A DNA stretch of 64,000 nucleotides from Candidatus Nomurabacteria bacterium (lineage in GTDB: Bacteria > Patescibacteriota > Minisyncoccia > Phycocordibacterales > UBA9973). Each line of letters begins with the position of its first letter. Positions within the stretch are counted from its first letter, which is position 1. Below, one piece after another: positions 1,647 through 47,374 of this stretch. The DNA lies in the NCBI GenBank assembly GCA_028286485.1, contig JAQBRM010000027.1, positions 10,632 to 74,631 of the forward strand. Direction: 5' to 3'. A program made the position numbers and the translations under genes. The notes beneath the pieces were generated by a model. The model was given only the letters and a program-made list of their open reading frames with translations. It did not search any database and was not told the origin of the DNA.

Positions 1647-2060
1647 CTATAAATATAGGTTAATTTCAGGATAGACAATAATTTTTCTTTCTTTAACATC
1701 TGCAATTGATACCCATTCCGCATATTCATTTTCCTTATCAAGAATTTTTATTTTTTCTTTTGTGTTTAGATTATCGTCTTTGATATCAGCTTTGTATAAA
1801 AAAGTAATTTCTTGGTTCGGTTCGCCATTGTATTCAAAAATATTTTCAATCACTGTTAGCAACTTCTCATTTGCTAGTTTTACTCCTAGCTCTTCCTGTA
1901 ATTCGCGCTCAAGCGCAACCAGTGATGTTTCGCCAAATTCAATTCCCCCACCTATCAGGCGTCCAAAATGCTTGCCCGTTTTTTTATCAACTGCGCTATG
2001 CACGAGCAAATTTCCATTTCGAACAATAATGGCAAGGGCGTTTGGGCGAATTTGTTTCAT
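1647..2060 (-). CDS. NUDIX hydrolase
   Basis: NUDIX box GGGIEFGETSLVALERELQEELGV (GX5EX7REUXEEXGU). 137 aa. Confidence 0.8.
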   Translation of the reverse strand: MKQIRPNALAIIVRNGNLLVHSAVDKKTGKHFGRLIGGGIEFGETSLVALERELQEELGVKLANEKLLTVIENIFEYNGEPNQEITFLYKADIKDDNLNTKEKIKILDKENEYAEWVSIADVKERKIIVYPEINLYL

Positions 2061-2100
2061 TAATTACTATAATATAGCAAATGAAAAACTATACAAAGCA

Positions 2101-2297
2101 ATTAAATGGGGACAGGCCCATTTTTATATTTTATTTATCTTAAAAAAAGACCTTAATTATAAAGATATACTAGATAATGTTGCATTAATAATGGGCGGTA
2201 AAATCATAAGATTGAAAATTATCGAGATAAAAAGCTTATATAGTTGAGTACAAATGTATTAAAGATTTTCTAAAAAGGGGCCTGTCCCTATTTATTT
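2101..2297. mobile_element. REPIN/MITE-like doublet: two inverted 28-bp REP-like termini flanking about 140 bp of AT-rich non-coding DNA
   Basis: Left arm attaaatggggacaggcccatttttata and right arm ctaaaaaggggcctgtccctatttattt are near-identical to the termini of the RAYT unit at 46415..47142. Each arm contains a GGGGaCAGGCCCC mini-hairpin. The right arm abuts the uvrC stop codon. Confidence 0.6.
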
Positions 2298-45487: not shown

Positions 45488-46381
45488 TTACTGAGGGAGA
45501 AATTTGAAACCCTGCATGATACTGTTGAGATCATTATGAACCTGTACCGAATTATAAGCACTGACCCCCATGCTTGGGTCAAAATTTGCCAATACGACAT
45601 AGTGAATAGTGTATTCAATGGCATAACACTGACCGTTACGCACCGTACGATAACTGGTGGTTTCATATCGATTGCCCGCACCCGCATCAGTGGAGACAAA
45701 GGTGGTATACGGTACGCCATTAATGGTAGTAGCGGATTTAGTTACGCCGTTACCGCTGATATCGTTCAAACAATTTGTAACGGCCTTGGGATCACTGGAA
45801 GTACCGACGGTGAACTTGGCATCACCGAAATTTGTTTTCGGCTGATAACTTTGCGGTACATTCACGGTGGCTAAAACAAGTCCCAATGTGCCATCACTAT
45901 TGGCTTTCCAATCTTGTGTGTAGCCAATGCCGCCGCCCGCCAAGCTGAAAGCTTGAGGGTACGTAAAGGTAAATGTCTTGCCCTGATCGGTGAAGGATTT
46001 CAAACCGTTAGTAGCAGTACCGGCGGTGCCGGTCAGACAATTATTATAGGTGGTGGCAGTACCCTCTTTCAAAAATGCTTGGTCGCCTTTATTAATAAAT
46101 AATATGGTCCCTTGCTGGTACTGTGCGCCATCCGCGGCAATAATTTGAGGCAATGTAAGGTGACGCCCGTCAGAAAGAGTCAGATTTACACTACCATCAG
46201 AAAAGCTTGCGGTGATAGTACTGCCGCTATCACAGGTAAACAATGCGGTGGCAGTCACGGGCTGAGTAACCGGTGGAATCGCTGCCGGAATCGGAGTCGA
46301 CCCTTTATGCACAAAGCTGTACCCTACGATGAGCACCAATACCAATAATACGATATAAAATACCATTCTTTTAAATGTCAT
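45488..46381 (-). CDS. secreted/membrane-anchored protein with an N-terminal MliC-like (lysozyme-inhibitor fold) domain and an unknown C-terminal domain
   Basis: N-terminal TM helix. ALFTCDSGSTITASFSDGSVNLTLSDGRHLTLPQIIAADGAQYQ resembles the MliC family. The remainder is G/T-rich with no match. Confidence 0.45.
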   Translation of the reverse strand: MTFKRMVFYIVLLVLVLIVGYSFVHKGSTPIPAAIPPVTQPVTATALFTCDSGSTITASFSDGSVNLTLSDGRHLTLPQIIAADGAQYQQGTILFINKGDQAFLKEGTATTYNNCLTGTAGTATNGLKSFTDQGKTFTFTYPQAFSLAGGGIGYTQDWKANSDGTLGLVLATVNVPQSYQPKTNFGDAKFTVGTSSDPKAVTNCLNDISGNGVTKSATTINGVPYTTFVSTDAGAGNRYETTSYRTVRNGQCYAIEYTIHYVVLANFDPSMGVSAYNSVQVHNDLNSIMQGFKFLPQ

Positions 46382-46414
46382 ACATTCAGTATACGCCCCT
46401 CTTTACAGATAGCA

Positions 46415-47142
46415 AAATAAATGGGGACAGGCCCCTTTTTAGTTTTTCTTTAACGGTCATATGTAATGATAGAGAAATGCCAAGACAACCAAGAAATGAT
46501 ACTGGTAATCGAATCTATCATGTAATTAATCGAGCAAATGCGCGGCTTAAAATATTTGAAAGTGACTCAGATTATGAGCTTTTTGAGAATTTATTAATGA
46601 AAGCCCTGAGTCGTTTTTCCATAAAACTATATGCATATACCAATATGCCCAATCATTTCCATTTAGTGCTTTATTCTGAAAAACCTGCTGAGGTTTCAAA
46701 ATTCATGCACTGGTTAAGCGGTGCTTTTACCCAACATTGGCATACTCGACATGCCACCATGGGAAGCGGTCATCTATTTCAAGGCCGGTACAAATCATTT
46801 CCTATTCAAAATGGAAACCACTTACTGCAAGTATTGTTATATGTTGAACGAAATGCAGTTCGTGCAAAATTAGTTAAAAGAGCGGAAGAATGGAGATGGT
46901 GTAGTGCGTGGATAAGAAAATACGGAAATGAAAAGCAAAAGAAAATGCTTTCAGAATGGCCTATTGATGTGCCCAAAGATTATTTGAATGTTTTAAATAA
47001 AACCGATGATGAAAATATTTTAAAAGACATTAGATTCTCTATTACAAAAAGTGTTTCTATTGGGTCAGAGGGAAAAAGACCGCGAGGGCGACCTAGAAAG
47101 AAATAAAGATATTCTAAAAAGGGGCCTGTCCCCATTTATTTA
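46415..47142. mobile_element. REP–RAYT–REP unit: IS200-like Y1 (HuH) transposase gene flanked by perfect 28-bp inverted REP-like termini
   Basis: Left end aaataaatggggacaggcccctttttag. Right end ctaaaaaggggcctgtccccatttattt is its exact reverse complement. Each end contains a GGGGaCAGGCCCC hairpin. The interior is AT-rich. Confidence 0.7.
46477..47106 (+). CDS. REP-associated tyrosine transposase (RAYT; IS200/IS605 TnpA-like Y1 HuH transposase)
   Basis: HuH motif MPNHFHLVLY and a catalytic Tyr context LLYVERNAVRAKL (Y1_Tnp family pattern). The start MPRQPRND lies internal to the 46375 track ORF, which reads through the left REP. Confidence 0.8.
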   Translation: MPRQPRNDTGNRIYHVINRANARLKIFESDSDYELFENLLMKALSRFSIKLYAYTNMPNHFHLVLYSEKPAEVSKFMHWLSGAFTQHWHTRHATMGSGHLFQGRYKSFPIQNGNHLLQVLLYVERNAVRAKLVKRAEEWRWCSAWIRKYGNEKQKKMLSEWPIDVPKDYLNVLNKTDDENILKDIRFSITKSVSIGSEGKRPRGRPRKK

Positions 47143-47374
47143 CCAATGATTCTTTTTGGGGGCGAGTTAGGCGTTTCAATTCCCCTTCACGGCGACGAAC
47201 TTCGGCGTAAGTAGGAAATGATTCGCTGTAGACGAGGGTTACGGGGCGGCGGATTTTGGTGTAGTGCGCGCCGGCTTTCGAATTATTATGCTGATAAAGC
47301 CGGCGCTCCATATTGTTGGTGGAACCAACATAGTACGTGCCATCATTGCACTGCAAGATGTACGCGTGGAACAT
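47114..47374 (-). CDS. GIY-YIG nuclease-family protein (YhbQ/UPF0213-like)
   Basis: YILQCNDGTYYVGSTNNMERRLYQHN is the GIY-YIG motif. The last 7 codons and the stop (KWGQAPF*) are supplied by the right REP of the RAYT unit. Confidence 0.75.
   Translation of the reverse strand: MFHAYILQCNDGTYYVGSTNNMERRLYQHNNSKAGAHYTKIRRPVTLVYSESFPTYAEVRRREGELKRLTRPQKESLVNKWGQAPF

Follow-up and report, generated by a model that had tools for sequence, protein, structure and literature searches.

The window analysed here is a stretch of 64,000 nt of DNA from a Candidatus Nomurabacteria bacterium, a member of the Candidate Phyla Radiation (CPR, Patescibacteria). It contains a 727-bp cassette at positions 46415-47141, in which a single open reading frame (ORF) for a Y1/HuH tyrosine transposase lies between two terminal inverted repeats (TIRs) of 28-38 nt of the GGGGWSAS type. 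The cassette is probably a TIRtron, that is, a TIRYT-type gene together with its TIRs, and TIRYTs are a sister class of the tyrosine transposases associated with repetitive extragenic palindromes (REPs), the RAYTs. Di Nocera 2013 (PMC3733652) described RAYT-like genes flanked by terminal inverted repeats and not by GTAG REPs, and named the proteins TIRYTs and the units TIRtrons. Since this kind of element is already described in other phyla, the cassette is a clean new example and not a new system. The class is known but little studied, being named in the searched literature only by Di Nocera 2013 and Quentin 2018 (PMC6006769), and the cassette is found in a phylum where that literature has not described it.

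The 28-mer AAATAAATGGGGACAGGCCCCTTTTTAG is present as exact copies at 46415-46442 on the plus strand and at 47114-47141 on the minus strand. No match to it appeared in 100 dinucleotide-preserving shuffles. Ungapped extension yields 38-nt arms (TIR-L and TIR-R, Table 1) with 92% complementarity. A preliminary description of this DNA, made from the letters alone, had noted the exact inverted repeats around an intact gene. Both are confirmed, with the end moved from 47142, 1 nt too far, to 47141. TIR-L is composed of an outer AT box AAATAAAT, the core GGGGACAGGCCCC, and an inner part TTTTTAG-TTTTT-CTTTA. Both arms combine an A-tract with a GC core and a T-tract. TIR-L ends 35 nt before the ATG (family median 38.5), in the orientation seen in the relatives. 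The spacing between TIR and ATG is constant across phyla, and on this basis the promoter and the ribosome-binding site of the cassette are presumed to lie within the leader or to overlap TIR-L. No sigma-70-like site was called on the plus strand.

As single-stranded DNA (ssDNA), the arms form a G-C stem of 4 bp that closes a 5-nt loop and is flanked by a few A-T pairs. The mini-hairpin reported earlier at GGGGACAGGCCCC is nothing beyond this stem. Folding energies range from -3.6 to -5.8 kcal/mol (z from -0.8 to -1.5), no better than those of shuffled sequence. Neither arm was called in a terminator scan, because the stem is shorter than 5 bp, and the 38-nt arm contains neither a GTAG nor a CGTC tag. 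A symmetric helix of 8 pairs was evaluated over 88 distinct but mutually related arms in an alignment anchored on the motif columns. Here, pairing amounts to 74% (67.9% in shuffles) and covariation to 0.214 (0.137 in shuffles), a value that none of 500 shuffles reached. Two helix positions show compensated changes, one with AU/UA/CG/GC and one with UA/GC. These values lend modest support to a putative conserved imperfect palindrome with a symmetric or hairpin core. The symmetry of the arms is compatible alike with a hairpin and with a palindromic duplex site.

The protein matches Pfam Y1_Tnp (PF01797) over residues 13-125 with 59.8 bits (cut-off 23). In an alignment of 26 homologues, H60 and H62 of the HuH motif (NHFHLVL), Y122 (YVERNA), and G98, H99, Q102, R104, and Y105 are invariant. 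Other motifs are GHLFQGRYKS, WRWCS (WRWSS in the family consensus), and the AT-hook-like C-terminal tail KRPRGRPRKK, whose GRPKK type is conserved among the 26 aligned homologues. A single-sequence phmmer search against PDB returned nothing relevant. The best match of a 26-sequence profile in PDB is 4ER8, the TnpA-REP of E. coli (E=1.9e-7), followed by ISDra2 TnpA (6.8e-5). The profile alignment places the HuH motif on HMH of 4ER8, and Y122 on the Y of YIYINP. The AlphaFold2 model has a pLDDT of 87.6 and a pTM of 0.84. Its top match in Foldseek is again 4ER8 (E=5e-8, TM 0.69), followed by ISDra2 and IS608 TnpA. The last 70 residues are helical in the model. Comparison with the three closest relatives gives a dN/dS of 0.11-0.20 at saturated dS. 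The full-length ORF, the invariant residues, the profile and fold matches, and the dN/dS indicate an intact and selected RAYT-like Y1 enzyme, which bears out the Y1/HuH assignment of the preliminary description.

The same description placed the protein in the IS200 family, which is too loose. It reaches 22.6 bits with the IS200 equivalog of NCBIfam (NF033573, cut-off 55) and 61.3 bits with the RAYT equivalog REP_Tyr_transpos (NF047646, cut-off 80). The protein is thus neither an IS200 transposase nor an NCBI-grade RAYT equivalog, and by NCBIfam, profile search, and fold it is closer to E. coli TnpA-REP than to IS200. With IS200/IS605 elements (IS608, ISDra2 TnpA) it shares the HuH and Tyr catalytic domain and, presumably, the action on ssDNA ends containing hairpins. 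IS200/IS605 elements, in contrast, have no TIRs; their subterminal hairpins are read on one strand, their Tyr motif is Y---Q, and they are usually multicopy and often accompanied by tnpB. The ends in the window are inverted repeats and the Tyr motif is YVERN.

All 25 aligned homologues start with M-P-R, which supports the start codon at 46477. The true product is most likely 209 aa, not 243 aa, and the annotation is corrected in this respect. The deposited ORF, JWM92_507 (243 aa, 46375-47106), begins at an upstream ATG 102 nt before MPR and reads through TIR-L. It also overlaps the start of the MliC gene on the opposite strand. The window protein is without a 14-residue segment found in most CPR homologues (209 vs ~224 aa). 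The same segment is also missing in its closest relatives P0002, P0005, P0010, and P0021.

Homologues of this protein are abundant. A word-indexed search returned more than 1,100 of them, the top ones with ~224 aa. Many come from metagenome-assembled genomes (MAGs) of Paceibacterota/Patescibacteria, where they are labelled just "transposase". An exhaustive search of 50%-identity clusters gave 27,042 clusters at E<=1e-3, 9,768 at 1e-10, and 236 at 1e-30. TIRYTs are thus a large family, if the 9,768 clusters at E<=1e-10 are taken as its measure. The preliminary description regarded such systems as essentially undocumented in CPR bacteria. This holds for the searched literature, in which no description of RAYT or TIRYT systems in CPR bacteria was found; the databases, with their many homologues in Patescibacteria MAGs, tell otherwise. 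The nearest match in the literature is an automated KEGG assignment (K07491) in an archaeal genome of Pacearchaeales, from a study also covering Patescibacteriota. IMG/VR contains no more than 3 weak relatives, and carriage by a phage was dropped as an explanation for this reason.

The family was sampled with 80 homologous loci from named genomes, mostly full-length and with 36-63% identity, to which three close CPR relatives were added. The 80 loci span Patescibacteria, many Planctomycetota, Nitrospira, NC10, Acidobacteriota, and others. They were scanned by a script that is free of any motif and requires one arm upstream and one arm downstream of the gene. Flanking inverted repeats were found in 64 of the 80 relatives, and 34 of these 64 have perfectly matching arms of 14-28 nt. 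The motif GGKGWSRS is seen in 48 of the 64 repeat-flanked loci, and the strict GGGGWSAS in 15. The right arm begins a median of 5 nt before the end of the ORF. Typical arms are AAAAGGTGTCAGGAACCTTTT, AAAAGGGGACGGGAGTCTTTT, and AAATGGGGTCAGACCCCATT. The window arm AAATGGGGACAGGCCCCTTTT fits the same series and has the same orientation to the gene. The repeat type, its orientation, and its spacing from the gene are common to relatives in at least 6 phyla. The TIR motif is essentially absent from ~450 kb of CPR DNA that lacks the gene and was fetched for other reasons. Some relatives hold further copies of the arm, among them tight doublets without a gene in L014, L027, and L073. Some Planctomycete loci hold two gene copies. 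In the CPR relatives, 0-1 extra arm copies are found in loci of 6-20 kb.

In the three closest TIRYT lineages (56-68% identical), the cassette is located between ruvB and the T2SSE ATPase gene. All three are Nomurabacteria-type lineages. The cassette of L006 (3687-4397) is inverted relative to those of L001 (9941-10554) and L004 (9940-10565), which would fit a flip between the two inverted repeats or a separate insertion into the same interval. The transposases of L001 (10001-10540, 179 aa) and L004 (10001-10534, 177 aa) are shortened at the C-terminus and do not have the GRPKK tail. In both, the right TIR lies directly at the new stop codon. This loss indicates that the tail is dispensable or being lost in that lineage.

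Several features of the cassette recur in the published TIRtrons. According to Di Nocera 2013 (PMC3733652), GGGGWSAS is common to many TIRs, and those of the main type are set at a roughly equal distance from the coding sequence; some TIRs reach into the 3' end of the gene, and some belong to moderately abundant families whose copies stand alone, in dimers, or in groups. Likewise, the cassette encodes a RAYT-like Y1 protein with a C-terminal extension, its TIRs stand at a fixed distance from the gene, whose 3' end lies within the right one, and its core GGGGACAG is an exact fit to GGGGWSAS. The dimers described there have a counterpart in the gene-less doublet of the window. The host is different: CPR/Patescibacteria are a group in neither of the two papers on TIRYTs. 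Quentin 2018 (PMC6006769) tentatively equates the TIRYT class with TnpA-REP subclass 2.1 (Group 1 of Bertels), into which 20 of the 26 TIRYTs fall. Group 1 is among the more IS-like RAYT groups (Bertels 2017). Subclass 2.1 is characterised by NH[YF]H or NHVH, FQ or W[EQ], Y[IV]HLNP or YIELNP, and SS after the Y helix. Its members have an HTH-like (helix-turn-helix) C-terminal tail and a median length of 238 aa, and occur in ~1.9 copies per genome with no association with REPs (Quentin 2018, PMC6006769). NHFH and FQ of the window protein fit this subclass, and the Ser after WxW does so loosely. With 209 aa the protein is shorter than the median.

From the third base of a Val codon onward, the end of the neighbouring GIY-YIG nuclease gene is TIR-R sequence, comprising 8 full codons (NKWGQAPF) and the TAG stop. 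The conserved GIY-YIG domain ends with ...QKESLV directly before the TIR. The preliminary description was right that the right arm ends this gene, although it counted 7 codons instead of 8. In an alignment of 25 orthologues of the GIY-YIG protein (70-81% identical), conservation extends to ...QKxxL[IV] and is followed by variable tails of 0-15 residues. None of the 25 ends in KWGQAPF. The cassette overwrote just the dispensable, variable C-terminal tail of this gene.

The gene order in the relatives L087/L088 and L089 is EEP nuclease, a membrane protein of 172/232 aa, GIY-YIG, Flavodoxin_2, ABC transporter (confined to L087/L088), PG_binding/TIG, MliC, and sigma-70. In relatives, 2-5 other genes separate the MliC and GIY-YIG genes. 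The window has the same flanks as these loci, and the cassette stands in place of the block from flavodoxin to PG_binding. DNA homology to the relatives ends at ~47153-47163 on one side and at the ATG of MliC on the other. No homologues of the replaced genes are found anywhere in the window. Because the relatives carry other genes at this site, homology breaks off at it, and the block is missing, the cassette must have arrived by insertion or replacement.

The preliminary description went further and considered the insertion relatively recent, which cannot be shown. The GC content of the gene is low (35.8% vs 46.8%). In the closest relatives, including the syntenic ones, it is also 7-12 points below the surroundings, and low GC was therefore rejected as a sign of recent transfer. 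The perfect arms were rejected as a sign of recency because such arms are seen in 34 of the 64 relatives.

The same organism is represented in JGI 3300044691 (99.9% identical; L090) and in SRR13312996 (100% identical; Logan contig L091). L091 ends at window position 47112, 2 nt past the TIR, and L090 ends at 46714, inside the transposase gene. Assemblies break in this manner at repeats, a hint that the genome contains copies beyond those in the window.

A second, diverged pair of the 28-mer is located at 2100-2127 (plus strand, 3 mismatches) and 2270-2297 (minus strand, 1 mismatch), 44 kb from the cassette. The preliminary description had missed this pair, and with it the repeat occurs beyond the cassette, as that description had anticipated. 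The 142 nt between the two 28-mers are AT-rich and contain no ORF, and the whole 198-bp doublet has 25.8% GC. Searches of the 64 kb with small-word BLAST and with the 13-mer core found no arms beyond these four. In collections of genome and metagenome contigs, which do not include the source organism, the pattern TAAATRGGGACAGGCCCMTTTTTA has 0 matches. The spacer of 122 nt has no detectable similarity to the transposase gene or its leader. The doublet may or may not derive from the cassette by internal deletion. In having the ends of the cassette without the gene, the doublet resembles a non-autonomous derivative such as a miniature inverted-repeat transposable element (MITE). Unlike a MITE, it has no visible target-site duplication (TSD) and no trace of the parent gene in its interior, and its parent enzyme belongs to the Y1 HuH nucleases instead of the DDE transposases.

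The doublet and a Nudix gene (1647-2060, minus strand) form a segment of 31.6% GC (1627-2297) between UvrC (50.2% GC) and Ddl (52.6% GC). In the relatives L093, L095/L096, and L101, the ATG of Ddl lies within ~10 nt of the UvrC stop, and no doublet is present at the junction. This near-contact in several relatives indicates that the doublet segment is lineage-specific. The junction motif AGCAATGCTATAAT is seemingly present on both sides of the insert in the window, as AAAGCGATGCTCTAA at the UvrC end and as TAGCAATTTGCTATACTAT before Ddl. It hints at a duplicated target or a recombination joint. Each of the two right-hand arms in the window adjoins the 3' terminus of a GIY-YIG-domain gene: one overlaps the 86-aa GIY-YIG gene, and the other abuts the stop of UvrC. 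As there are just two cases, chance may account for this. Di Nocera 2013 (PMC3733652) reported that intragenic REPs are often within replication and repair genes.

Table 1. Positions in the 64,000-nt window of the cassette, the gene-less doublet, and the adjoining genes.
Feature	Position	Strand	Remark
Doublet, left arm	2100..2137	+	Diverged copy of the 38-nt TIR
Doublet, spacer	2138..2259	.	AT-rich, 122 nt, without ORF
Doublet, right arm	2260..2297	-	94.7% identical to TIR-R over 38 nt; abuts the UvrC stop codon
UvrC gene, short, 415 aa	2298..3545	-	
MliC-domain lipoprotein gene (other host flank)	45488..46381	-	
TIR-L	46415..46452	+	28 nt exact and a 10-nt imperfect inner extension
Core motif GGGGACAG	46423..46430	+	Instance of GGGGWSAS
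Leader between TIR-L and start codon	46453..46476	+	
Y1/HuH tyrosine transposase gene, probably of TIRYT type, 209 aa, intact	46477..47106	+	Pfam Y1_Tnp, 3.5e-16
TIR-R	47104..47141	-	Transposase stop codon (47104-47106) at the inner end; outer 28 nt belong to the coding part of the GIY-YIG gene on the opposite strand
GIY-YIG nuclease gene, 86 aa	47114..47374	-	Pfam GIY-YIG, 1.4e-18

The preliminary description interpreted the locus as a REP-RAYT arrangement. In a classical REPtron, a domesticated, immobile RAYT present in one copy gives rise to a large number of REP hairpins or REPIN doublets throughout the genome, as with E. coli TnpA-REP (4ER8) and its REPs and bacterial interspersed mosaic elements (BIMEs) or with the Group 3 RAYTs of Pseudomonas. 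There are real likenesses. A short and partly palindromic repeat brackets the gene in inverted orientation, and the 64 kb also hold an inverted doublet with no gene. In structure as in profile, the HuH/Y1 fold gives the best match, and the protein is nearer to TnpA-REP than to IS200. As with RAYTs, synteny is kept among the closest homologues in three lineages, and the Logan contig is broken right at the TIR as happens at repeats. A classical REPtron is nevertheless unlikely. The protein scores below the RAYT cut-off. The arms do not have the GTAG/CGTC "foot", and their 4-bp stem is no stabler than shuffled sequence, whereas REPs are defined by longer stem-loops. REPtrons maintain tens to hundreds of repeats per genome, largely as REPIN doublets; the 64 kb hold four arms, two of them as a doublet, and the loci of CPR relatives hold few extra copies. 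A RAYT is a single copy at the same extragenic site in relatives; the window also has one copy, but its site is not orthologous to the ruvB-T2SSE interval. Besides, GGGGWSAS TIRs are separated from REPs by Di Nocera 2013 (PMC3733652). What remains of the arrangement proposed earlier is a TnpA-REP-like gene with flanking inverted repeats, and these repeats are not REPs but fit GGGGWSAS TIRs.

It is also conceivable, though quite improbable, that the repeats are not recombination substrates but regulatory elements of the host, such as bidirectional terminators or operators, which insulate or autoregulate the gene, and that the cassette came by ordinary recombination or horizontal transfer. The succession of A-tract, GC core, and T-tract in each arm would suit this, as would the location of arms at the 3' ends of genes (GIY-YIG, UvrC, and transposase), the constant interval of 35-45 nt between left arm and ATG, which is the place expected of an operator or promoter, and the synteny of the closest homologues. 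The reading of the arms as terminators was rejected, since the terminator scan called neither arm and the motif is absent from other CPR DNA. The folding energy is also at background level. An asymmetric GGKGWCAGG is conserved across phyla of very different GC content, and it is linked to the gene, with none in the ~450 kb of other CPR DNA. Neither the gene-less doublets in the window and relatives nor the inversion of the cassette in L006 relative to L001 and L004 is what regulatory elements would lead one to expect. That the cassette is a decaying relic, with an inactive gene and perfect arms kept by chance or by gene conversion, is hardly credible. The missing 14-residue segment, the lost C-terminal tail in L001 and L004, and the few repeat copies seen could be taken as signs of decay. 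The ORF is full-length with all invariant residues, however, the dN/dS is low, the AlphaFold2 model is confident, and the arms are identical over 28 nt. The segment is also missing in the closest relatives.

For a TIRtron, a mode of action can be sketched by analogy with TnpA-REP and IS608 TnpA. The enzyme would recognise the imperfect palindrome containing GGGGWSAS, probably on ssDNA at the replication fork. It would nick beside the palindrome via a 5'-phosphotyrosine and rejoin the strands. DNA bounded by TIRs, either the cassette itself or internally deleted doublets in trans, might occasionally be relocated or rearranged in this way. The activity is probably low. The AT-hook-like tail probably helps to hold the AT-rich flanks of the TIRs, and by binding the left arm, 35 nt from the ATG, the enzyme may control its own gene. 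Since the two ends carry the motif on opposite strands, the pathway could not be a simple copy of the one-strand mechanism of IS608. One relocation with gene loss in the lineage of the window, one in-place inversion in a relative, and gene-less doublets are the rearrangements observed.

Several facts weigh against the interpretation as a mobile TIRtron. The Y motif of the window protein is YVERNA and not Y[IV]HLNP, and it fits subclass 2.1 loosely, as does the serine motif WRWCS. No Pfam match to a C-terminal HTH (Bac_DnaA_C, HTH_23, or HTH_28) was obtained at E<=1 in the last 70 aa, nor in two full-length CPR homologues. In place of the HTH-like tail of the subclass, the protein ends in the AT-hook-like GRPKK motif. 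Neither a TSD nor a common flanking tetranucleotide is seen at the four arm ends. The conserved ruvB-T2SSE site in three lineages makes the cassette look stably inherited and not like an active element. The weakness of the TIR hairpin means that recognition may be of duplex DNA. We know of no biochemical work on any TIRYT, so the chemistry above is borrowed from TnpA-REP and IS608.

It can be speculated that the Patescibacteria clade, with proteins of ~224 aa and the GRPKK tail, represents a vertically inherited, domesticated TIRYT that is kept for a host function, for example the processing or structuring of DNA at GGGGWSAS palindromes. The cassette might then flip in place, occasionally relocate while deleting its neighbours, and seed gene-less doublets. 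We consider this doubtful. If it were true, a REPIN-RAYT-like intragenomic replicator system would be on record for CPR bacteria for the first time.

The locus is compact and unusually clean: the 28-nt arms are perfect, the gene is intact, a doublet without a gene is present, and comparison with relatives gives evidence of an insertion accompanied by gene loss. CPR genomes are streamlined, and every retained gene raises the question of why it is kept. For in vitro studies of how a Y1 enzyme handles inverted rather than direct ends, the cassette could be a useful template.

The repeats of some relatives deviate from the common type. In L015 (9962-9985/10662-10685) and L035 (9941-9965/10736-10760), the gene is flanked by different perfect palindromes, AAAACTACCTTTAGGGTAGTTTTT and AAAAAGACACTTAGTGTCTTTTTCT. 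They keep the frame of A-tract and T-tract without GGGGWSAS. The frame seems to be more conserved than the core. The Planctomycete relative L043 has inverted repeats of 92 nt (172-263/1012-1103), each with an internal inverted pair of TIRs. Its flanks correspond to a REPIN-like hairpin at either end of the gene.

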